Source: Deferribacteres bacterium
GTDB lineage: Bacteria; Nitrospirota; Thermodesulfovibrionia; UBA6902
Direction of reading: 5' to 3'
Length of the DNA stretch: 42,048 nt
Assembly: GCA_013152795.1 (NCBI GenBank)
Contig: JAADFS010000032.1
Coordinates: 1-42,048 of the forward strand
Part shown: one piece after another, positions 677 through 40,520 of the stretch
How the letters are laid out: each line of letters starts with the position of its first letter
Numbering within the stretch: the first letter of the stretch is position 1
Notes under the pieces: model-generated
What the model saw: the letters and a program-made list of their open reading frames with translations, nothing else
The model's database searches: none
What the model was told of the DNA's origin: nothing
Made by a program: the position numbers and the translations under genes

Positions 677-745
677 TTGAATCTTGCAATCCTGAATTAA
701 AATTGAATCTTCAGATTTCATTCCGCCCCCCGACAACTGCCCCCT
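677..745. repeat. X-module repeat, copy 1 (TTGAATCTTGCAATCYTGAATTAAAATTGAATCTTCARAYTTCATTCCGCCCCCC..CAACTGCCCCC)
   Basis: A near-identical ~70-bp copy lies at 4887-4955 in the same orientation. The C-rich end recurs at 3721-3735 and, reverse-complemented, in the G-rich GCAGTTGTCAGGG modules at 5810-5840 and 21925-21945. Confidence 0.8.
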
Positions 746-960
746 GCCCCCTTTGATGAACGTTCATCTTTAATCATGTCGGCAATCCCTTCACTTATCC
801 GATTCAGAGAATTCATTACATCATCAAGAATGAAGCTAAGCCCGAACTGAGAGCAGTCTGAAAACTCAACAGGACATCGATCACTAAAAAAATCCGAAAT
901 AAAAGAAATTTTGGAACGGCAAATATTCAACTCATCTGCCAGCTTGATTAGATGTGACAT
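718..960 (-). pseudogene. HEPN-like gene remnant (C-terminal half only)
   Basis: The product ..SHLIKLADELNI..DRCPVEF..ILDDVMNSLNRISEGIADMIKDE parallels the C-terminal half of the intact HEPN protein at 4126-4518 (..THNLLYLIKLADIKI..TRYPEDF..EEYLKDAERVLKWLKQ). The LIKLAD 6-mer is identical and the R-x-P-x-[DE]-F spacing is similar. There is no N-terminal half upstream, and the 3' end reads into the X-module. Confidence 0.35.
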
Positions 961-1805: not shown

Positions 1806-1888
1806 CCTGCGGTCTCTGCCGCAGGAACCTTATTCGGGGTTTCCAAAGGGGATTACCCCTTTGGTTACTCGCAGGGTAAACGCCCTGC
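1806..1888 (+). promoter_or_regulatory. Three consecutive stem-loops in the leader of the orphan gene
   Basis: CCTGCGG/CCGCAGG (1806-1812/1819-1825). CCAAAGGGG-ATTA-CCCCTTTGG (1843-1864, perfect 9-bp stem). GCAGGG/CCCTGC (1871-1876/1883-1888). All lie within 125 nt upstream of the GAGG-ATG at 1921-1932. Confidence 0.5.
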
Positions 1889-1929
1889 AATGTGATCCGA
1901 CTTTACATCATATACGACACGAGGTAACC

Positions 1930-3462
1930 ATGTTTCTCGCATTACAATTCCCATTTGCAGACCTGCGCGAATTTCTTGGAGATGAGGGCGGGCGACTCCC
2001 ATCTCCGAAAGTGGCCTTACCTAAAAAGATAGGAAGAGATTTTATTCGCTCTTCAGGACTCATAAGGCGTCGCCGTAAAGGGGGAGTCAAGGAGTGGGCG
2101 GGTGAAGAATTGTATTGTAGTGGCGAATTAGCTCTGCGCTTCCCCAATCGCCTTGGGGATATGCAGTTCGGGACTGGTTCTGTAAAAGGGGCTGTGGTTG
2201 ACACGTTCCGTCGTTTCCATTCGAAAGGACCAGTAGCACGCTTCGAAGTCGCTTTTCAGCTTAGAGTCAAATACCGAGATTTTGATGAAGCCTCCGCGCC
2301 AGAGTGGTTCGCGCTTCTGCGGGATGTGCTTCAGATTCCTATGCATAAGCGATACATACCCCAGAAGAGGCTATCGACGAGCAAAATACTGAATCCTTCC
2401 GAGTCATTACAGGGCAGGCAGACGGAGATGCCAACAAAGGTCAATTTGATTCATGCTGGTAATGTCCTGGCACAACATTATCTTGCCGCTACAACAAATC
2501 GCCAGTTGATCCCACAGGTCGAACTTCAACCGTGGTGGTATTGTCCAGGAACGCCTGCTCTTATTGTCGAGATTAAGGAACCTTACTCGCTTCCTATGGC
2601 GCTTCCGCATGCACGAGAGGTACTCCATGTGCCAGATGCATCGGCTTCAATATTCCACGCTTGGCTGGAGTTTGACAATCAACCTTGCAGCGCTTGGTTT
2701 TTTGCCATGGGTGAAGGCGACCCGGACGCGGTTCGGCGACTCCGCATCAACTTGACTCGCCTACATGCCGAACGCGAATGCTTAAACCTTGTTCTCGCTA
2801 ACATCGGAACCACCCAAGGATGCAATATCAAGCTTGGAGATAATCTTAAGCAGTTAGATGCAATTCAGCAATATTTAAATGATGCCTTAGTGTCTATCCA
2901 GAAGCCTAAACGCTTCGGGATAAGTCAGGCTTCTATGTTTGAAGTCGCGCATGATGCTTTTGAAATCGCGATCGAAGGACAAGAAGCAACACTTCAGGAA
3001 ATGGGCTGGCAAGTAGCCGAAAAGGTAGATAACTACATTCGCCGTGCAGAAAACAACGCGAAAATCACTACGGTAATCAAAGGAGATGTCGTGACAACAA
3101 ACATTCAGTTGGATAACGTCTGCATTGGTGGTGACTTCAATGTCGCTACTGCAAAAAATATCGAGAAAAGTTTCAATAGAGTGAAAAAGGCAGAGGTGAA
3201 TAGCGACCTTAAGGAAAAACTAAAACTGCTTACCGTTGAAGTTGCTAAACTTGCAAAAGAGCTTCCGTCTGATAATGCTGAAAAACTTACGAGGGATCTC
3301 GATAATCTTACTTCCGAAGCACTTTCCGCGAAACCTCGCAGGAAATGGTATGAGCTTTCAGCAGAGGGTATCTTGGAAGCAGCGAAGGCCGTAGCCAATG
3401 TGACAGAATCTGTCACCAAGGCTGTAACGGCTGTGGTGGCCACATTGGCCGGATTAAGTTGA
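1930..3462 (+). CDS. Orphan 511-aa protein with no family recognised by eye; alpha-helical/coiled C-terminal tail ending in a short hydrophobic segment
   Basis: This is a long uninterrupted ORF. The ATG at 1930 has GAGG 5 nt upstream, so I prefer it to the TTG at 1861 in the ORF track. Arg codons are mostly CGN (8 of the first 10), whereas neighbouring host genes use AGR (all 4 Arg in the first ~75 codons of cheY). I see no P-loop, nuclease or RT motifs. Confidence 0.7.
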   Translation: MFLALQFPFADLREFLGDEGGRLPSPKVALPKKIGRDFIRSSGLIRRRRKGGVKEWAGEELYCSGELALRFPNRLGDMQFGTGSVKGAVVDTFRRFHSKGPVARFEVAFQLRVKYRDFDEASAPEWFALLRDVLQIPMHKRYIPQKRLSTSKILNPSESLQGRQTEMPTKVNLIHAGNVLAQHYLAATTNRQLIPQVELQPWWYCPGTPALIVEIKEPYSLPMALPHAREVLHVPDASASIFHAWLEFDNQPCSAWFFAMGEGDPDAVRRLRINLTRLHAERECLNLVLANIGTTQGCNIKLGDNLKQLDAIQQYLNDALVSIQKPKRFGISQASMFEVAHDAFEIAIEGQEATLQEMGWQVAEKVDNYIRRAENNAKITTVIKGDVVTTNIQLDNVCIGGDFNVATAKNIEKSFNRVKKAEVNSDLKEKLKLLTVEVAKLAKELPSDNAEKLTRDLDNLTSEALSAKPRRKWYELSAEGILEAAKAVANVTESVTKAVTAVVATLAGLS

Positions 3463-3720
3463 ACTGGAAGCGCTGTGCGGTGAAAGGCGTACGTAATCGA
3501 TTTTTCAAGGCAAAAATAGGGACTATGGGGTGAAATCTTCATAGTTGAGCGTGCCCAGCGAAGGGTACAGCTTACTAACGGGAGAAAGCCCCGAGATGGT
3601 AAAAGCCGGAGCCATGTAGCTTGGATGGCAGGTGGCGATGGAAACGTTGCCTTCTGAAGCCCATCGACAAAAAAGTCGGCGGAAGGCCGGTGAGCGAATA
3701 TCCGGGTTGTAACATATCCC

Positions 3721-3864
3721 TGACAACTGCCCCCTGTCCCCTGTAAACGTTCATCTTTAATCATGACAGCAATCCCATCACTTATTCGATCCAGAGAATC
3801 CATCACATCATCAAGAATGAAGCTAAGCCCGAACTGAGAGCTGTCTGAAAACTCAACAGGACAT
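3721..3864 (-). pseudogene. Second HEPN 3'-end fragment (direct repeat of 731-877)
   Basis: About 88% identical by eye to 731-877 in the same orientation. It encodes CPVEFSDSSQFGLSFILDDVMDSLDRISDGIAVMIKDER. It is cut off at 3864/3865, ~10 bp from the mosaic repeat that starts at 3875. Confidence 0.45.
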
Positions 3865-3874
3865 TGTTGGGTAA

Positions 3875-4090
3875 ACCTTCATTTTGCATAAAGGGCAGGA
3901 GTGCCTGCCGTAAAACCGTTATAAAGCGATAGGATTCTAACAGAACAGGGTGCAGGAAGAAACAAGTCCCCCTCCCGTTGGGAGGGGGTTAGGGGGAGGG
4001 GGCTGAGCTGTTATCCCTGAAGGAATCGCAGATAAAGCTTCTCCGGCAGCCTCCTCTGCCCCACCGGCAGGATTTATGCCACTGTAAGGT
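3875..4090 (-). repeat. ACCTTA-hairpin mosaic element with G-rich cargo
   Basis: Left end: ACCTTCATTTTGCATAAAGGGCAGGAGTGCCTGCC..TTATAAAGCGAT. Cargo: CAGGGTGCAGGAAGAAACAAGTCCCCCTCCCGTTGGGAGGGGGTTAGGGGGAGGGGGCTGAGCTGTTA. Right end: ATCGCAGATAAAGC..GGCAGCCTCCTCTGCC..ATGCCACTGTAAGGT. The sister copy is at 21839-22083. Confidence 0.85.
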
Positions 4091-4886: not shown

Positions 4887-4955
4887 TTGAATCTTGCAAT
4901 CTTGAATTAAAATTGAATCTTCAAACTTCATTCCGCCCCCCCGGCAACTGCCCCC
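4887..4955. repeat. X-module repeat, copy 2
   Basis: About 93% identical by eye to 677-745. It sits between the MNT stop and the DUF2059 gene stop. Confidence 0.8.
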
Positions 4956-5672: not shown

Positions 5673-5840
5673 TCCCCTATACGTGAACCCTGCTGATATT
5701 ATTAATGTTACCAAAAGTATCAACACGAGGCAAGGGAAAAAACCACAGGGCGAAAGGGCAGAAAAGTCTGCCGGAAAACGTTATAAAGCGATGGGAATAA
5801 TTACAGAGGGTGCAGTTGTCAGGGGGCAGGGTGCAGGGAG
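5673..5840 (-). repeat. Composite repeat: long-tail module (5673-5741), hairpin/End-C-like module (5751-5792) and G-rich GCAGTTGTCAGGG module (5807-5840)
   Basis: 5673-5741 is the inverted partner of 1305-1373. GGCAGAaaagTCTGCC is at 5757-5772, followed by GGAAAACGTTATAAAGCGAT. The G-rich part overlaps the last codons of the GDYXXLXY gene. Confidence 0.8.
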
Positions 5841-8617: not shown

Positions 8618-8682
8618 CATTACAGCGGCATAAAATACCGTCAGGGGGGCAGACTTCTCTGCCTGTTTATGCAACATTAAGC
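8618..8682 (+). repeat. ACCTTA-hairpin mosaic element, minimal single-hairpin copy
   Basis: CATTACAGCGGCATAAAATACCG..GGCAGACTTCTCTGCC..TGTTTATGCAACATTAAGC. Confidence 0.75.
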
Positions 8683-9013: not shown

Positions 9014-9217
9014 ATGAAATCAAGAGGACTATGTGTAATTCTGGGTGTGCTTATGATTGCCCTGTTATTTCCGTATTCAGCAGCAGCCGACTGGCAGATA
9101 GAGTGTCTGGATTGTCCGCGTAATTTTGACTGGTTAAGCAACAGGGCGCTGGCATTCTTCCGGGAATCCTCATATTGTCTATACAGGTTCAAACGCTGTG
9201 TATTATGCTTACTATGA
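9014..9217 (+). CDS. Signal-peptide-bearing N-terminal fragment of the repeat protein (out of frame with the body)
   Basis: GGAGGAG lies 6 nt before ATG 9014. The product MKSRGLCVILGVLMIALLFPYSAAADWQIECLDCPRNFDWLSNRALA then turns to nonsense, with a stop at 9215-9217. Confidence 0.6.
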   Translation: MKSRGLCVILGVLMIALLFPYSAAADWQIECLDCPRNFDWLSNRALAFFRESSYCLYRFKRCVLCLL

Positions 9218-11672
9218 CGGCGTTTCCTGGCATATTGAGACAGTGGACAGTGACGGCAACGTCAAAAGTGCATCCATAACCATAGACTCATCAGATAATG
9301 TTCATATCAGTTATGACTATGACTACAACTATGATTATTTTTATAATCGTACGCTGAAGTATGCGACGAATGCCTCAGGCTCATGGGTCTCTGTGGTGGT
9401 AGACAGTGAGGGAGGCGGGTATCCTTCCATAGCCATAGACTCATCAGATAATGTTCATATCAGCTACAGCTCTCCCGGGTTGAAGTATGCGACGAATGCC
9501 TCGGGCTCGTGGGTCTCTGTGGTGGTAGACAGTGAGGGAGTCGGGTATCCTTCCACAGCCATAGACTCATCAGATAATGTGCATATCAGTTATACCTCTT
9601 TTGATAATGGTTTGAAGTATGCGACAAATGCCTCGGGCTCCTGGGTGACTGTGATAGTGGACAGCGCCGGAGGGCTGAATTCCTCCATAGCCATAGACTC
9701 ATCAGATAACGTGCATATCAGTTATACAGATAGTTATCCAGATTACAACCTGAAATACGCAACGAATGCCTCAGGCTCCTGGGTCTCTGTGATGGTGGAC
9801 AGTGAGGGAACCTTTTATTATTCCTCCATAGCCATAGATTCATCAGATAATGTGCATATCAGTTATCTTAGTTATTTAGATTGGGAGTTGAAGTATGCAT
9901 TGAATGCCTCAGGTTCATGGGTAGTCGAGACAGTGGACAGCAGTAGACTGGCCTCTGCAACTGCTTCAGTAGCAGTAGATTCAGCAGATAATGTCCATAT
10001 AACTTACGTTGGCCCTCAAGGTCTGATGTACAGGACAAATGCCTCGGGCTCATGGGTGACCGAGACAATAGACAGCGAAGGAAAATGGGGGCCTTCCATC
10101 GCAGTAGACTCATCAGGCAAGGTGCATATTAGTTATAGCACTTATTCTTGCTCTGTCAGTATCAGTTGCCTGAAATATGCAACGAATGCCTCGGGCTCAT
10201 GGGTGTCTGAAATGCTGGACAGCATGGCTAAATCAAATACATCCATAGCCATAGATTCGTCAGATAAAGTACATATCAGTTACTATGATTCTTTTTTTGA
10301 TGGAAGTTTAATGCCCACCTACCTGCAATATACGACAAATGCTTCCGGTTCGTGGGTGTTTGAAAGGGTGGACGGTGACTATGACATAGATGCTCCCTCC
10401 ATCATAGATACTCCCTCCATGGCCATAGACTCATCAGATAACGTGCATATCAGTTACTCTTTTGCTTATTATAATACCATTGATTGGATGATTGACCACG
10501 TCCAGATGAGATATGCGACGAATGCCCCGGGGTCATGGATTATTGAAACGGTGGACGAGACACAGCCAACTATGTATTATTCCATGTATCCTTCCATAGC
10601 CATAGACTCATCAGATAACCTGCATATCAGTTATAACAATGATTATGGCCTGAAATACGCAACGAATGCCTCAGGTTCATGGGTGTCTGAGACAGTGGAT
10701 GACAATGGCAGTGAGCCCTCTTTCATAGCCATAGATTCATCAGATAACGTACATATCAGTTATAGCGATACCTATCCGGATTACAAACTGAAATACGCAA
10801 CGAATGCCTCAGGCTCGTGGGTGTCTGAGACAGTGGCCATTTATGGAGGCGCGATCTCCATGGCCGTGGATTCATCGGATTATGTTCATATTGTTTATTA
10901 TGATAATAAAGACTATGACCTCAAGTATGCGACCAACAAGCCTTTGCCGGACATCTCGGTAACCGACTCGGTCGATCCCGCCGATGACCTCCTGATACCG
11001 TTTGGTGATATAACAAAATGCAGCTTATCAGGCCGGCCGGTCACCGTAACCAATACCGGAGATGCGAACCTTGTGATTGGATCGGTATATTTAACAGGCA
11101 CCAACCAGGATCAATTCGGCATACGGAATGACACTTGTTCAGGCGCGGCGATATCGCCCTCGGGAACCTGCACAATCGATGTGGTATTCAGCCCCACAGA
11201 GGCAGGGGAGTTGAGAGCTGTCCTTGGGATAGACAGCAATGATCCCGACACGCCGTCTGTTGAGGTGGAACTGGCTGGAACAGGCGTACAGCTCCCCTAT
11301 AAAGTCAGCGGCAAAGGCATGAATCATCCTGCGGCAAGGTCCATGGCCATGATGGCCCTCGATGTCAGTGCTTCCTCTCCGGAAGCGGGCCGGCTCAAGT
11401 ATTATTATAGCCGCCACGGTCACGGCCGCAGAGGCGGACTGACTCTTGAAAGCACGTCAATCACCGGGCTGTCCGTGGGCTGTTACGGAGACGCCGCAAT
11501 TACAGGCACCGGCACAGTGAAAGGAACGGCGGGATATACCTTTACCGCAACAGTAACCGACGGCGGTCCGGACAGCATGGGCATCGAGATTTACAGGCCT
11601 GACGGAACACTTTACTTCAGTGCGGAACCAGAAGCCGTACGTATGGGGGATTTTGTCATAGAGGAAGAATAA
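9198..11672 (+). CDS. Large secreted repeat protein: 13 copies of LKYATNASGSWV..IAIDSSDNVHISY, then a choice-of-anchor-D-like Ig domain and a C-terminal beta-rich domain
   Basis: The frame is actually open from 9138 (..SSGNPHIVYTGSNAVYYAYYDGVSWHIETVD). The GVQ..GDANLVIGSV..FSPTEAG segment resembles ASH/choice-of-anchor-D domains. There is no in-frame ATG or signal peptide of its own (see the frameshift finding). Confidence 0.8.
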   Translation: MYYAYYDGVSWHIETVDSDGNVKSASITIDSSDNVHISYDYDYNYDYFYNRTLKYATNASGSWVSVVVDSEGGGYPSIAIDSSDNVHISYSSPGLKYATNASGSWVSVVVDSEGVGYPSTAIDSSDNVHISYTSFDNGLKYATNASGSWVTVIVDSAGGLNSSIAIDSSDNVHISYTDSYPDYNLKYATNASGSWVSVMVDSEGTFYYSSIAIDSSDNVHISYLSYLDWELKYALNASGSWVVETVDSSRLASATASVAVDSADNVHITYVGPQGLMYRTNASGSWVTETIDSEGKWGPSIAVDSSGKVHISYSTYSCSVSISCLKYATNASGSWVSEMLDSMAKSNTSIAIDSSDKVHISYYDSFFDGSLMPTYLQYTTNASGSWVFERVDGDYDIDAPSIIDTPSMAIDSSDNVHISYSFAYYNTIDWMIDHVQMRYATNAPGSWIIETVDETQPTMYYSMYPSIAIDSSDNLHISYNNDYGLKYATNASGSWVSETVDDNGSEPSFIAIDSSDNVHISYSDTYPDYKLKYATNASGSWVSETVAIYGGAISMAVDSSDYVHIVYYDNKDYDLKYATNKPLPDISVTDSVDPADDLLIPFGDITKCSLSGRPVTVTNTGDANLVIGSVYLTGTNQDQFGIRNDTCSGAAISPSGTCTIDVVFSPTEAGELRAVLGIDSNDPDTPSVEVELAGTGVQLPYKVSGKGMNHPAARSMAMMALDVSASSPEAGRLKYYYSRHGHGRRGGLTLESTSITGLSVGCYGDAAITGTGTVKGTAGYTFTATVTDGGPDSMGIEIYRPDGTLYFSAEPEAVRMGDFVIEEE

Positions 11673-18241: not shown

Positions 18242-20035
18242 ATGCCTGATGAAATGGAAGAGATAATATCCGAGTTTATTACGGAAGCCGAGGAGTCCCT
18301 TGACAGGATAGAACCCCTGTTTGTCGAGCTCGAGCAAAAGGGCCATGATGCGGATATGCTCAACGATATATTCAGGTCCATGCATACCATCAAGGGAGCG
18401 GCGGGGTTCCTTGGTTTTCAGTCGATAGTGGATGTTGCGCACTCATCGGAAAATATAATGAAAAAGCTGAGGGACGGCGAAATCACGCTGTCAAAGCGGT
18501 TGATGGATGTGATCCTCAAGGCTATTGACATGCTGAGACTGCTCCTTGAGCATTTAAGGGAAAAAGACGGCATAGAAGAGGATGTAGCGCCGCTGACGCA
18601 GGAACTGGAAAATGTCCTCAAGGAGAGTTTATCAGGTTCACCGGATGGTGGAGTTACCGTAGAAACCCGGGAAAAAGAAAAAGATGAAACCTCCCGGCCG
18701 CAGGATGATAATGCAGTAAGTAACGGAGAGCCGGCTCCTTCGCACGGTGATGAAACTCAAAGACACGGTGAAGAGGATAATGCGGAAAAACCCGGCGAAC
18801 CCGCGCAGGTACACAAGGATACCTCCCACAAGGCAAAGGAGGCCGCACAGAATCTCCGCGTGGATGTCGAGAGGATAGACAAGGTCATGGACCTTGCAGG
18901 CGAGATGGTTCTCATAAGGAACAGGCTTCTGAATATATCCCATTACTTTGATCTGAACTACAGCAGCGACACACAGACTGAGACATTGATGGAGGCGGTC
19001 TCGTTTCTGGACCGCGTGACATCGGACATGCAGCTTGCCGTCATGAAGATAAGGATGCAGCCGATCCAGAAGGTGTTCAGCAAGTTTCCGAGGCTTGTAA
19101 GAGACATTTCAGCCTCTGTAAATAAAAAGGTCGAAATAGAGATTTACGGCGAGGGCACAGAGGTGGATAAATCCGTGATAGAGCATATCGGCGACCCGAT
19201 GACCCACATACTGAGAAATTCCATTGACCACGGTATTGAGTCCCCTGAGGAAAGAATCGCAAAAGGAAAACCTGAGAAAGGTAAGATCGTTGTAAACACC
19301 TATCAGAAAGGCAATCAGATCGTCATTGAGATTACGGATGACGGAAAGGGGATAGACATTGAAAAACTGAAGGAAAAGGCTGTTGAAAAAGGCATGTTAA
19401 CAGAGGAGGAAGCCTCCAAAATGTCCGACGAGGCCGCGGTAAATATAATTTTCATGCCCGGTTTTTCCACCAAGGAAACCGCAACCGAGCTCAGCGGCCG
19501 CGGTGTCGGGATGGATGTTGTAAATAACAATATCTCACTGTTGAACGGCTATGTCGAGGTGTCGACCCAGAAAGACAAGGGCTCGACCTTCAGGATATGC
19601 ATACCCCTGACACTGGCGATAATACAGGCATTAATGGTCGAGGTGGCCGGCATAAAATATGCCATACCCCTCTCACCCATAGAAGAAACACTGAAGATAT
19701 CAAAGGATGAGGTAGACAACATAACGGGTCAGGATGTGATAGTCATCCGCAACAAGGTCTGCCCGCTGTTCGAGCTTAACGGCATCCTGGGCACAGGCTC
19801 CAACGGTGGCCACGACAGAGATCACAAGTACGTGGTGGTTATTTCCCTGGGTGAAAAGAAATTCTGTCTTGCCGTGGACAAACTGCTGGGGCAGGAGGAG
19901 GTTGTAATAAAGACCCTTGAGGGAATAGATACAGCATCTTCGTATGTTCTCGGCGCATCCATAACCGGCGACGGCAAGATTGTCTTCATACTGGATGTTA
20001 CGGCGATGTCGAGGAGCCTTGTTGAAGCAACATGA
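18242..20035 (+). CDS. cheA: Chemotaxis histidine kinase CheA
   Basis: An Hpt domain (FRSMHTIKGAAGFLG), an acidic linker, a dimerisation/HATPase domain (HILRNSIDHGIE, DDGKGID, GRGVGMDVV) and a C-terminal CheW-like domain. Confidence 0.95.
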   Translation: MPDEMEEIISEFITEAEESLDRIEPLFVELEQKGHDADMLNDIFRSMHTIKGAAGFLGFQSIVDVAHSSENIMKKLRDGEITLSKRLMDVILKAIDMLRLLLEHLREKDGIEEDVAPLTQELENVLKESLSGSPDGGVTVETREKEKDETSRPQDDNAVSNGEPAPSHGDETQRHGEEDNAEKPGEPAQVHKDTSHKAKEAAQNLRVDVERIDKVMDLAGEMVLIRNRLLNISHYFDLNYSSDTQTETLMEAVSFLDRVTSDMQLAVMKIRMQPIQKVFSKFPRLVRDISASVNKKVEIEIYGEGTEVDKSVIEHIGDPMTHILRNSIDHGIESPEERIAKGKPEKGKIVVNTYQKGNQIVIEITDDGKGIDIEKLKEKAVEKGMLTEEEASKMSDEAAVNIIFMPGFSTKETATELSGRGVGMDVVNNNISLLNGYVEVSTQKDKGSTFRICIPLTLAIIQALMVEVAGIKYAIPLSPIEETLKISKDEVDNITGQDVIVIRNKVCPLFELNGILGTGSNGGHDRDHKYVVVISLGEKKFCLAVDKLLGQEEVVIKTLEGIDTASSYVLGASITGDGKIVFILDVTAMSRSLVEAT

Positions 20036-21838: not shown

Positions 21839-22083
21839 AATCTTAATATTGCATAAACGCGGCAGGAGAGTTGGGGGAACAAAGTTCAGAGTTCAAAGTT
21901 CGGAGTTCAAAGTTAAAGGTTCAGGCTGCGGTTGTCAGGGTGCAGGAAGAAACAAGTCCCCCCTCCCTTTGGGAGGGGGTCAGGGGGAGGGGGCTGAGCT
22001 GTTAGCACTGAAGGTATCGCAGATAAAGCTTTTACGGGAGCCTCTCCTGTGCTGCCGGCAATGTTTTTGTGCCACTGTAGGGT
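21839..22083 (-). repeat. ACCTTA-hairpin mosaic element with heptamer-microsatellite and G-rich cargo, inside the che operon
   Basis: Order of parts: ATCTTAATATTGCATAAACGCGGCAGGAGAG; GGGGAACAA; (AGTTCRR)x6 at 21882-21923; GCGGTTGTCAGGGTGCAGG; the G-module; ATCGCAGATAAAGC; GTGCCACTGTAGGGT. Confidence 0.85.
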
Positions 22084-23161: not shown

Positions 23162-23266
23162 ACCTTAATGTTGCATAAACGTGCAGGAGGGTTGCGGACA
23201 GATAAAGCTTTTCCGGCAGGCTCCCTTGCCCGCCGGTGATATTTTTATGCCACTGTACTGTAAGGT
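23162..23266 (-). repeat. ACCTTA-hairpin mosaic element, two-hairpin copy without cargo
   Basis: ACCTTAATGTTGCATAAACGTGCAGGAGGGTTGCGG..GATAAAGCTTTTCCGGCAGGCTCCCTTGCC..ATGCCACTGTACTGTAAGGT. Confidence 0.8.
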
Positions 23267-25070: not shown

Positions 25071-25130
25071 CTATATTCCTCCCTTCCTACTATATTATTA
25101 ACCTTACAGTGGCACGGAGATATCAATGCC

Positions 25131-25784: not shown

Positions 25785-25802
25785 GCTACCTCCAACAATG
25801 AA

Positions 25803-25858
25803 ATCGCTTTATAAAGGTTTTCCGGCAGGCTCTCCTGCCCCACATATGCAACATTAAG
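25803..25858 (+). repeat. ACCTTA-hairpin mosaic element, End-C half copy (between fliK and flgD)
   Basis: ATCGCTTTATAAAGGTTTTCCGGCAGGCTCTCCTGCCCCACATATGCAACATTAAG. A 14-nt End-A stub, ACCTTACAGTGGCA, sits at 25101-25114 between flgD and flgE. Confidence 0.8.
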
Positions 25859-27659: not shown

Positions 27660-27690
27660 AAAAAAATTCCCCCGCGGGGGAAAGTTTTTT
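27660..27690 (-). terminator. Rho-independent-type terminator (bidirectional shape) downstream of the GT-C gene
   Basis: An A7 run, the perfect 16-nt palindrome TTCCCCCGCGGGGGAA (27667-27682), then AAG and a T6 run. Confidence 0.6.
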
Positions 27691-27705
27691 CCCGTTTGCA
27701 GGTAA

Positions 27706-27920
27706 GCCTTACAGTGGCAAAAATACTGCAAGCGGGGCAGAGGAGTCTGCCGGAAAAGCTTTATCTGCGATTCCTTCAGGAAATATTCCGCACGGCATAT
27801 TGACGTCCTTTTGAACTTCACTTTCCGTTACTTCCTGCAACAGAGACGTATTTCCAATATCTTATCGCTTTATAAAGGTTTTCCGGCAGACTCCTCTGCC
27901 CGTTTATGCAACATTAAGGT
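27706..27920 (+). repeat. ACCTTA-hairpin mosaic element, full copy (End-A, core-B, End-C)
   Basis: About 85% identical by eye to 40304-40520 over ~215 bp. Contains GCCTTACAGTGGCA..GGCAGAGGAGTCTGCC..GCTTTATCTGCGAT, then CCTTCAGGAAATATTCCGCAC..TTCCTGCAA, then ATCGCTTTATAAAGGTTTTCCGGCAGACTCCTCTGCCCGTTTATGCAACATTAAGGT. Confidence 0.9.
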
Positions 27921-27953
27921 AAGCTGTCCTCTTACCTGCAGCGGGCGGATTTA

Positions 27954-29726: not shown

Positions 29727-29791
29727 TCCTAATGTTGCATAAACGGGCAGAGGAGTCTGCCCCGCCGGCGGTATCTTATGCCACTGTAAGG
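29727..29791 (-). repeat. ACCTTA-hairpin mosaic element, minimal single-hairpin copy
   Basis: CCTAATGTTGCATAAACGGGCAGAGGAGTCTGCCCCGCCGGCGGTATCTTATGCCACTGTAAGGT. Confidence 0.8.
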
Positions 29792-34907: not shown

Positions 34908-34955
34908 AATTGCCTTGCCAGTTTATGCAATATTAAGGTAAACTAATAGGCAGTG

Positions 34956-37014: not shown

Positions 37015-37050
37015 TGCAGACTCCTCTGCCCGTTTATACAACATCAAGGT
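37015..37050 (+). repeat. ACCTTA-hairpin mosaic element, End-C stub abutting the CPBP start codon
   Basis: TGCAGACTCCTCTGCCCGTTTATACAACATCAAGGT. A further chimeric stub, GGTTTCCCGGCAGACTCCGCTATCCCTGAA, lies at about 37781-37810. Confidence 0.7.
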
Positions 37051-37738: not shown

Positions 37739-37875
37739 ATTAAGACATTATAATTAAACGCCGGGAGGGTGTCAAAGCAGGTTTCCCGGCAGACTCCGCT
37801 ATCCCTGAATTTTTTAATTCCGCCGGACTTATGCTAAACTATCACCTACTTTTGACATGTGGAGGAGACAGGAAA

Positions 37876-40100: not shown

Positions 40101-40173
40101 CTGCACTCCGAACTTTCAACTCTGAACTTTGTTCCCCGGCAGACTCTTCTGCCCGTTTGTGCAACATTAAGGT
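40101..40173 (+). repeat. ACCTTA-hairpin mosaic element: heptamer module (4 units, reverse orientation) plus End-C
   Basis: CTGCACTCCGAACTTTCAACTCTGAACTTTGTTCCCCGGCAGACTCTTCTGCCCGTTTGTGCAACATTAAGGT. It is the reverse complement of the left part of 21839-21924. Confidence 0.8.
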
Positions 40174-40303: not shown

Positions 40304-40520
40304 GCCTTACAGTGGCATTAAAATACCGCCTGCGGGCAGGAGAGCCTGCCGGAAAAGCTTTATCTGCGATACCTTCAGGAAATATTCCGCACAGCATATG
40401 GACATCTTTTGGAACTTCACTTTTCGTTATTTCCTGCAATAAAGACTTATTTCCGATATCCCATCGCTTTATAAAGGTTTTACGGCAGGCTCTCCTGCCT
40501 GTTTTATGCAACATTAAGGT
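40304..40520 (+). repeat. ACCTTA-hairpin mosaic element, full copy (End-A, core-B, End-C)
   Basis: Sister of 27706-27920. Its hairpins read GGCAGGAGAGCCTGCC and GGCAGGCTCTCCTGCC. Confidence 0.9.

Follow-up and report, generated by a model that had tools for sequence, protein, structure and literature searches.

The stretch analysed here, referred to as the window, is one entire contig of 42,048 bp (JAADFS010000032.1) from an assembly named Deferribacteres bacterium, which GTDB places in the Thermodesulfovibrionia of the Nitrospirota. It carries che and fliK-flgD-flgE gene clusters, genes for PMT_2, sulfatase, phospholipase C, CAAX protease and MgtC proteins and a tRNA-Ser, and copies of a single repeat family are found in many of the spacers. 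These repeats are very probably non-coding, non-autonomous DNA transposons, i.e. [quoted passage not shown] The initial annotation of the window had described a modular, “MITE/REP-like” (REP: repetitive extragenic palindromic) family of 14 copies or stubs located in most intergenic regions. All 14 were recovered, either exactly where it had placed them or a few bases away. By manual count they occupy 14 of the 26 intergenic gaps of at least 45 bp, just over half, so that “most” is barely true. According to the gene map all copies are intergenic, some of them within tens of bases of start or stop codons. The terminus motif CCTTAMWGTKGCA, allowing at most one mismatch, occurs 13 times in the window compared to 0.28 ± 0.51 times in shuffled sequence, and a 20-mer from the inner arm occurs four times where 0.01 matches are expected. 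A hidden Markov model built from 19 full copies delimits 13 non-overlapping pieces with a total length of 1257 bp, about 3% of the contig, and a repeat finder sorts the copies into families D6–D9, D13 and D16 plus many inverted pairs.

The reference full-length copy (213 bp; 27707–27919, plus strand) is composed of an A terminus, a left arm, GGAAAAGCTTTATCTGCGAT, a core of about 92 bp, ATCGCTTTATAAAGGTTTTCC, a right arm and a C terminus, in that order. The tetranucleotide TAAG is found on either side of it, at 27703–27706 and 27920–27923. A strong bidirectional terminator-like hairpin (TTTCCCCCGCGGGGGAA flanked by T-runs) is located just outside this copy, at 27667–27683. As the copy lies between the PMT_2 stop codon and this separate terminator, it is part of the PMT_2 3' untranslated region (3'UTR). 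A second full-length canonical copy, 87% identical to the reference, is located between tRNA-Ser and a SIMPL-family gene (40305–40519, plus strand; flanks TTTG/TTTA). Two minus-strand copies carry foreign cores: a full-length copy 36 bp upstream of a HEPN gene (3876–4089), where the core is swapped for a G-rich hairpin module, and a 242-bp copy in the cheW/cheB spacer (21841–22082), where it consists of a GTTCA 8-mer repeat and the G-rich module. A two-arm copy of about 103 bp, from which the core is deleted, begins 8 bp past the cheB stop codon (23163–23265, minus strand). Two single-hairpin copies, both flanked by TTAT/TTAT, measure 65 bp (8618–8682, plus strand) and 64 bp (29728–29791, minus strand), the latter 25 bp upstream of the sulfatase ATG.

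The remaining copies are incomplete. A right-half copy comprising inner arm, right arm and C terminus is found in the flgD/fliK spacer (25798–25858, plus strand), and a partial copy consisting of a GTTCA-repeat module, right arm and C terminus is located beside tRNA-Ser (40101–40172, plus strand). Smaller fragments comprise an arm with the right inner arm (5756–5796, minus strand), a right arm with C terminus between the CAAX protease and MgtC genes (37016–37049, plus strand) and 22 nt from the right inner arm and arm that share 91% identity with the reference (37779–37800, plus strand). An A-terminus stub is found in the flgE/flgD spacer (25102–25114, plus strand) and a C-terminus stub between a 356-aa open reading frame (ORF) and the phospholipase C gene (34912–34938, plus strand), which is one of two copies in the window that the transcript reads from the A to the C end. 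The entries originally listed at 25101–25114, 34912–34939 and 37781–37810 are thus short stubs only. The initial annotation was right to place copies within the che and fliK-flgD-flgE clusters, to either side of tRNA-Ser and near start and stop codons.

Twenty full-length copies align with sharp boundaries, and the element proper is CCTTAC...TTAAGG. The outermost A and T of “ACCTTA...TAAGGT” belong to a 4-bp target-site duplication. Hence TAAGGT/ACCTTA, which had been suggested as the duplication, in fact combines the end of the element with a single base of the variable T-W-W-A duplication. The termini CCTTACAGTKGCAT and ATGCAACATTAAGG match at 12–13 of 15 positions, and complementarity extends through arms of about 40–65 bp; they differ consistently from each other as CCTTACAGTGGCA versus CCTTAATGTTGCA. 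The form of about 213 bp is a long imperfect palindrome in which arms of about 65 bp flank a core of about 90 bp. Inside the termini follows a variable spacer, on the A side only, and then a variable GC-rich arm segment, the “hairpin” of the initial annotation. These GC-rich segments are the least conserved part of the element, the inner arms GGAAAAGCTTTATCYGCGAT and ATCGCTTTATAAAGGTTTT are nearly invariant, and the core is moderately conserved. The three-part build (End-A, Core-B and End-C) with imperfect inverted arms of about 60 bp, the size classes and the hairpin variants GGCAGA..TCTGCC at 27706 and GGCAGG..CCTGCC at 40304 are all as first reported.

The copies, taken from all loci, fall into discrete sizes of 40–59 bp (22 copies), 60–69 bp (27), 80–99 bp (42) and 210–219 bp (48), with main classes of about 49, 62, 90 and 213 bp and an overall range of 49–362 bp. 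The ~90-bp class consists of an arm, a GGTTTTAC turn, which is a retained piece of the right inner arm, and a complementary arm; the arms of this class are often not locally palindromic. The ~62-bp class is one hairpin, and the ~49-bp class is barely more than the two termini. Most likely, the three shorter classes and the half copies are internal-deletion or truncation products of the 213-bp form. Deletion is seen directly at one orthologous site, and elsewhere the retained arm fragments point to it. Since GGCAG...CTGCC is present in both arms, these shared short direct repeats would favour slippage.

Cores have also been exchanged. A G-rich module replaces the core in two copies (3936–4024 and 21936–22014; 94% identical) and contains a 9-bp perfect hairpin, CCCCCTCCC-N3/4-GGGAGGGGG, which is flagged as terminator-like on the minus strand. 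The module was absent from all other loci that were fetched. Its presence in both 3876–4089 and 21841–22082 indicates that a rearranged variant was itself copied to a second site. Runs of an 8-nt unit of the GTTCARRG type replace the canonical core in some copies (21874–21920 and 40105–40137), and similar CCCTGAAC runs fill copies of about 145 bp in another metagenome-assembled genome (MAG; locus L024, 751–892 and 3637–3786).

In a first set of 57 elements, 18 are flanked by a perfect 4-bp duplication, compared to 4.0 ± 1.9 when flanks are paired at random, and none of 20,000 shuffled pairings reached 18. The enlarged, de-duplicated set gave 52 of 166 unique copies versus 11.3 ± 3.0 in shuffled pairings. 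In none of these 52 perfect duplications does the identity continue into a fifth base. TAAA, TTTA, TTAA, TTGA, TCAA and similar 4-mers are duplicated, with the consensus T-W-W-A; TAAA was counted 12 times, TTTA 10 times and TTAA 9 times. The reference copy exemplifies the arrangement, TAAG|CCTTAC...TTAAGG|TAAG at 27707–27919. A transposase, presumably of the DDE type, would cut AT-rich T-W-W-A sites with a 4-bp stagger, and joining of the ends CCTTAC... and ...TTAAGG would leave the 4-bp duplication. Target sites such as TAAA, TTTA and TTAA are common around stop codons and in spacers.

Orthologous sites were compared in four syntenic loci, L033 to L036, retrieved by their CheB orthologues (93, 91, 87 and 77% identity). 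L023/L033 is collinear with the window from 19.1 to 26.8 kb at about 88% DNA identity. The cheW/cheB spacer measures 278, 259 and 103 bp in genomes with an element versus 9 and 41 bp in genomes without one. It is occupied by the 242-bp foreign-core copy in the window, by a canonical 214-bp copy in L033 (TAAG/TAAG) and by a 61-bp copy in L034 (TAAA/TAAA), and the site is empty in L035 (9 bp) and L036 (41 bp). The window and L033 also differ at four other sites, the PMT/sulfatase spacer being the cleanest case. There, the window reads GCG-TTAT-(64 bp)-TTAT-AAAAC and the empty site in L033 reads GCA-TCAT-AAAAC, with a single TCAT. The termini, the duplication and the filled and empty sites show that the elements have inserted with a 4-bp duplication.

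Other sites record what became of the copies. After cheB, the ~103-bp form of the window is replaced in L033 by a 60-bp single-hairpin form abutting the stop codon. The flgE/flgD spacer has a terminus stub in all three species, with longer remnants in L023/L033 and L034 than in the window; the longer remnant at the orthologous L023/L033 site validates the stub at 25102–25114. In the flgD/fliK spacer the L023/L033 orthologue retains 87 bp more, including core, which identifies the window copy at 25798–25858 as a 5' truncation. In L033 an insertion (19742–19829) replaces the 3' end of the sulfatase gene, which ends at 19747 with the element's terminal CCTTAA as stop codon. The encoded protein has 634 aa in L033 versus 651 aa in the window and L035. 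Insertions at some sites would predate the split of at least three sister species, and other sites differ between species. Taken together, these comparisons show that copies have inserted with a duplication, stayed in place for long, been truncated, lost internal segments and had their cores replaced.

The family is also found outside the window. A scan of one genome per bacterial species for the arm-plus-C-terminus motif returned 32 loci, almost all from JALSHG01 (“Thermodesulfovibrio sp.”) and WFVK01 (“Nitrospirae bacterium S140_38”). Matches were also obtained in another three MAGs of Nitrospirota type, and at least five Thermodesulfovibrionia-type MAGs carry the family; one match in Gracilibacillus is probably due to chance. 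A C-terminus scan of metagenomes added 105 loci, from several of them. Confinement to the window, for example as an assembly artefact, had been named as the outcome that would speak against the family. The occurrence in other Nitrospirota MAGs and metagenome loci means that it is neither a local oddity nor an artefact, the latter also being ruled out by its presence in independent assemblies from NCBI, ENA and JGI.

Prokaryotic MITEs are defined as elements of about 50–800 bp without coding capacity (PMC11602168). The copies described here are short (49–362 bp) and non-coding, the one small frame they contain not being maintained. They have terminal inverted repeats matching at 12–13 of 15 positions, where at least 10–15 bp are expected of a MITE, and a flanking duplication of exactly 4 bp. 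They are also numerous and dispersed (13–14 in 42 kb; 1.05 Mb contain 166 unique copies with both ends) and differ in presence and absence between genomes. No Rfam family matches any copy at the gathering threshold, and the Rfam matches in the window are tRNAs and a group II intron fragment only. The literature library that was searched contains no earlier description of such repeats in Thermodesulfovibrio, Nitrospirae or Nitrospirota. The repeats are a new MITE family, and the general kind of element is already known.

The small frame, MSLLQELTESEIPKD... (= MSLLQELTESEIPKDVDMPCGICPEGIADKAFP...), recurs in the orientation that is favoured relative to transcription, i.e. reading from the C to the A end, for example on the minus strand of 40305–40519. 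Its three codon positions vary to an even extent (63, 53 and 72), 8 of 19 copies have lost the ATG, and frameshifts affect six or seven copies. A small protein or transposase relic in the core was considered, and is ruled out by the absence of a codon-position signature, the loss of starts and the frameshifts. A search of 5.8 billion proteins found 17 ORFs of 46–81 aa sharing the element-borne peptide and no long protein. These 17 public hypothetical-protein records are probably annotation artefacts of MITE copies.

To find autonomous parents, pairs of termini separated by 0.6–4 kb and bordered by matching flanks were sought, first in 316 kb and later in 1.05 Mb of DNA that bears the element. 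All ORFs bracketed in this way are host genes, e.g. PolA, a NuoF-like subunit, a sigma-54 regulator and a DEAD-box helicase. The main ORFs scanned in the window match no transposase family, in agreement with the initial annotation. As no transposase was found, the mobilising enzyme is inferred from its footprint only. The possibility that the 533-aa ORF at 1861–3462 (plus strand) conceals a transposase was considered and rejected; searches of Pfam, NCBIfam and PDB gave no match, and the termini do not flank it.

Three observations weigh against the MITE interpretation. Neither the window nor the 1.05 Mb of element-bearing DNA contains a transposase or autonomous element with these termini. Furthermore, two thirds of the copies lack a perfect duplication, which we attribute to decay, because many of the imperfect ones match at three of four positions. 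Finally, the cheW/cheB occupants differ in core, flank and duplication (TAAA, TAAG and ATAA/TAAA) among the three genomes, which could mean repeated insertion into a hot spot and not one ancestral event.

The initial annotation had also proposed that the hairpin stems covary between copies and that this argues for selection on the structure. RNAalifold predicts one long stem between left and right arm for 19 canonical copies, and not two local hairpins. In explicit pair counts on the 19 full copies, the local hairpins pair in 78.5% of cells compared to 77.7% in shuffles, a level that 125 of 500 shuffles also reach; their covariation score is 0.122 versus 0.118. The local-hairpin model was therefore rejected. 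Arm-to-arm pairing reaches 90.5% versus 82.8%, with 7 pairs and 30 cells changed on both sides and a covariation score of 0.270 versus 0.136, and none of 500 shuffles reached any of these three measures. When the arms are slid into any other register, pairing is at most 54%. The covarying columns 39/210 (AU 9, GC 7) are would-be loop positions of the local hairpins. The compensatory changes thus keep the left and right arms complementary to each other, which makes the element one long stem.

An independent alignment of 35 copies of the ~90-bp class supports the pairing of the arms. Gap scatter limited RNAalifold to part of the stem here, and a structure defined by hand was evaluated instead. 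In it, pairing reaches 86% in the outer 12-bp helix, seven pairs are compensated and the covariation score is 0.142 versus 0.112, which none of 500 shuffles reached. The inner turn is not supported as paired among these 35 copies. As RNA, the full copy has a minimum free energy of -89.5 kcal/mol (z = -7.4) and folds as one long stem; z is -5.5 to -6.1 for the ~90-bp class and -1.2 to -2.8 for single-hairpin copies. Copies would be included in the transcripts of adjacent genes and form a long double-stranded stem there.

Most of the covariation signal is carried by two or three matched-arm haplotypes, e.g. CAGAGGAGTC/GACTCCTCTG and CAGGAGAGTC/GACTCTCCTG. These represent few independent events, and selection on structure is therefore no more than possible: compensatory changes do exist, but from arm to arm and not within the local hairpins as had been claimed. 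The matching of the arms may instead be mechanistic, arising by quasi-palindrome correction (intra-strand template switching during replication or repair) or by amplification from a few matched-arm masters. Imperfect palindromes are known to mutate by templated correction. This explanation is a serious contender, at somewhat less than an even chance. It is consistent with the concentration of the signal in haplotypes common to many copies, and with a variability that peaks in the arms, the adjoining segments being invariant. Master copies would, however, still have needed matched changes in both arms. Furthermore, on the strand reading from A to C, G.T pairs outnumber A.C pairs by 31 to 7 (16 to 7 excluding one fixed pair), which pure copying does not predict.

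The same excess of G.T pairs favours the strand that usually is not the mRNA, and gives no clear sign of selection on the mRNA. This bears on the possibility that the family, or most surviving copies, have been co-opted as a functional RNA or DNA structure (for example a site within operons for processing or insulation, a stabiliser in the 3'UTR or an attenuator), with positive selection keeping the arms and the sense orientation. Correia elements, cut by RNase III, and ERIC, with an RNase E site, provide a precedent (PMC10969869). In support of co-option, the stems of the larger classes are very stable (z -5.5 to -7.4), compensatory changes from arm to arm are found in two independent alignments, the inner arms are nearly invariant, copies are kept at the same che/flg spacers in three species, and 93% of copies in all size classes have one orientation relative to transcription. 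Yet orthologous copies decay freely, being reduced to halves or stubs, having exchanged cores or belonging to different size classes at one site. Single-hairpin copies are barely more stable than shuffled sequence, and the covariation derives from few haplotypes. The absence of copies from the same spacers in the sister species L035 and L036 argues that no essential function is tied to them. On balance we consider co-option unlikely.

The orientation of the copies is strongly biased. In the enlarged de-duplicated set of two-ended copies, 63 of those between co-directional genes read from the C to the A end with transcription and 5 read from A to C (p = 8e-14). The ratio is 21:4 for full copies, 18:0 for the ~90-bp class and 24:1 for copies of at most 75 bp. 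A first estimate, from the first loci and crude ORF-based gene calls, was 48 versus 13. In the window, a manual count with Pfam-checked genes gave 9 of 11 copies reading from C to A. The orientation flips where the gene strand flips inside the window contig, and hence tracks transcription and not the replichore. The presence of the bias in all size classes places its determinant outside the core, in the arms or termini.

The main difference between the two readings is the sequence after the stem. When a copy is read from A to C, the rare case, the stem is followed directly by G/C-TTTATGC, and a scan flags terminator-like sequences at 8642 and 40484 (both plus strand). In the common C-to-A reading a GC-rich spacer, CGCCGGCGG, precedes TATTTTATG. 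Insertions between co-directional genes that read from A to C would terminate transcription by stem and U-tract and be lost, whereas those reading from C to A would allow read-through and hence survive. The bias is best explained, with modest confidence, by purifying selection of this kind. Several findings speak against it. Weak 5-bp terminator-like matches occur in the favoured reading too (40339, minus strand; 29757, plus strand), the U-tract on which the terminator explanation rests is itself weak, and the bias of 93% is far above that of BOX, RUP and SPRITE, which follow the coding strand at 60–63% only (PMC3049150). Because of the weak matches in both orientations, a role as terminator is kept as a hypothesis for the bias only.

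The duplicated 4-mer is mildly asymmetric as well, TTTA being found 16 times and TAAA five times in the A-to-C reading (p = 0.027). This fits an alternative in which the bias is set at insertion, by a transposase complex recognising an asymmetric target or a transcription-linked feature. Such an orientation-specific insertion step is the main alternative to selection, although it appears improbable to us. Short copies that lack a core show as strong a bias as the others, and the two termini differ consistently, as this explanation would have it. The 3:1 asymmetry of the target is, however, much weaker than the 13:1 orientation bias, and may follow the composition of the sense strand, where a TAA stop codon plus A gives TAAA. 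To our knowledge, DDE transposases acting on near-identical inverted ends do not sense the direction of transcription.

With the repeats taken to be MITEs, two of their features are worth following up, namely the near-absolute orientation relative to transcription and the matched-arm haplotypes. The link between orientation and transcription offers a simple, testable case in which selection or an insertion step filters mobile DNA inside operons. The family is a dated record of transposition and decay across the sister species of an uncultured lineage. In practice, it confuses the prediction of promoters, terminators and small RNAs, and can break MAG assemblies.

Several other features were observed in the window and its relatives. 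A group II intron D1–D4 motif (Rfam RF02003, 87 bits) is found at 3576–3717 (plus strand) with no adjoining reverse-transcriptase ORF, and the 533-aa ORF is located just upstream. A second, unrelated repeat family has direct copies at 677–890, 3722–3864 and 4887–4955 (90–93% identical), and alongside it an inverted pair (1306–1373 versus 5673–5740) is 81% identical. Together they bracket the 533-aa ORF, the intron fragment, one MITE and a HEPN/nucleotidyltransferase gene pair; the first copy of the second family overlaps an 80-aa ORF (718–960, minus strand). An 824-aa ORF (9198–11672, plus strand) consists of 11–12 tandem units of about 126–147 nt (42–49 aa) with weak Pfam matches to Ig-like (ASH/HYDIN) domains. 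A protein of about 103 aa with two CW domains (NF045718; 23350–23667, plus strand) is encoded directly after cheB in all five syntenic genomes. The cheZ/cheW spacer of L035 has a 227-bp insert (9309–9535) with three hairpins of the GTCAGGC-N5-GCCTGAC type, and a repeat of about 100 bp (...TTTTGGTATC..GATGA.TTATAAGAC.TCTCTC...CCTTTGCAAGAG...) occurs in three spacers of L033 (11045–11353, 15639–15850 and 17480–17842).

The family resembles REP, BIME and REPIN sequences in its GC-rich palindromic units, inverted pairs, mosaic arrangement and extragenic location, and in the compensatory stem changes, which have been reported for these as well. It differs from them by exact 4-bp duplications and DDE-type ends; REPs lack such terminal inverted repeats and are tied to a gene for a REP-associated tyrosine transposase (RAYT). 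REP/RAYT and IS200/IS605-type (HUH) elements make no target duplication. Movement as single strands, by a RAYT or an IS200/IS605-type HUH tyrosine transposase recognising the hairpins, might account for GC-rich palindromic segments in inverted pairs as in REPINs, for the compensatory changes in the arms and for an orientation bias, which is typical of single-strand transposition. It is nevertheless extremely improbable. HUH transposition would leave neither the exact, variable 4-bp duplication nor a filled site whose empty counterpart has a single 4-mer. The elements have true terminal inverted repeats of 13–15 bp, their orientation follows the gene strand and not the replichore within one contig, and the main ORFs scanned in the window contain no Y1-transposase domain. 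A conserved palindromic unit of 20–40 nt, as in REPs, was not found, the local hairpins showing no covariation and being non-palindromic in many ~90-bp copies. Of the original description, the MITE part is thus upheld by the target-site duplication and the filled and empty orthologous sites, the REP-like part is not, and the suggestion of a REP-associated tyrosine transposase is contradicted by the duplication.

As to the enzyme, the CC ends and the AT-rich 4-bp duplication hint at an IS1380/piggyBac-like or IS5-like transposase. IS5-group and IS701-type enzymes also make 4-bp duplications. The ends CCTTA...TAAGG fit the CC...GG ends and AT-rich (TTAA-type) 4–5-bp duplication of IS1380/piggyBac elements. 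PiggyBac has been paired with IS1380-like bacterial transposases (PMC5718144) and has a TTAA duplication with CCC/GGG ends (PMC10140906). The target of the family is looser than TTAA, and no IS1380-like or other transposase with these termini was found in the 1.05 Mb. Since IS1247, a member of the IS1380 family, makes 5-bp duplications (PMC3281130) and other IS families make 4-bp ones, this parentage is a lead and not a result. It is tempting to speculate, at rather long odds, that the family is mobilised by a piggyBac-like (IS1380-type) transposase and kept in sense orientation, either because the transcribed stem serves inside operons as a module for RNA processing or insulation, or because copies in the opposite orientation terminate transcription strongly. 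If so, the elements would be a bacterial counterpart of TTAA-type MITEs in Thermodesulfovibrionia-type Nitrospirota, and more than tolerated junk.

In behaviour the family is closest to Correia elements, ERIC and the pneumococcal repeats, since all are dense intergenic MITEs with size variants from internal deletion, nesting and transcribed stems with orientation-dependent effects (PMC10969869, PMC3049150, PMC11602168). Like the Correia elements (CREE/NEMIS) of Neisseria, the copies are short, non-coding and intergenic, with terminal inverted repeats and long and short classes formed by internal deletion. Correia elements duplicate TA, and we know of no comparable orientation bias reported for them. 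The family has a 4-bp T-W-W-A duplication, much longer arms (about 40–65 bp), a different phylum as host and no sequence similarity to them. An integration host factor (IHF) site or promoter in Correia elements would be a further difference from the Nitrospirota family. Correia elements are co-transcribed with their neighbours, and their inverted repeats form an RNA stem that is cut by RNase III in Neisseria (PMC10969869).

The ERIC/IRU elements of enterobacteria are likewise imperfect palindromes, of about 100–130 bp, in transcribed intergenic regions. Their variants arise from internal deletions or insertions at set positions, and they have orientation-dependent effects on mRNA and an RNase E site (PMC10969869, PMC3049150). 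The present family differs in sequence, host and duplication length, and its orientation bias is observed as a skew in the census. With BOX, RUP and SPRITE of Streptococcus pneumoniae it shares modularity (boxA-B-C), variable internal modules, mutual insertion and clustering. SPRITE is terminator-like, with a distribution shaped by selection (PMC3049150). Compared to these pneumococcal repeats, the Nitrospirota MITEs are far more uniform in orientation, and the best explanation of their modules is that parts of one palindromic MITE were deleted or replaced, and not that separate boxes were strung together.

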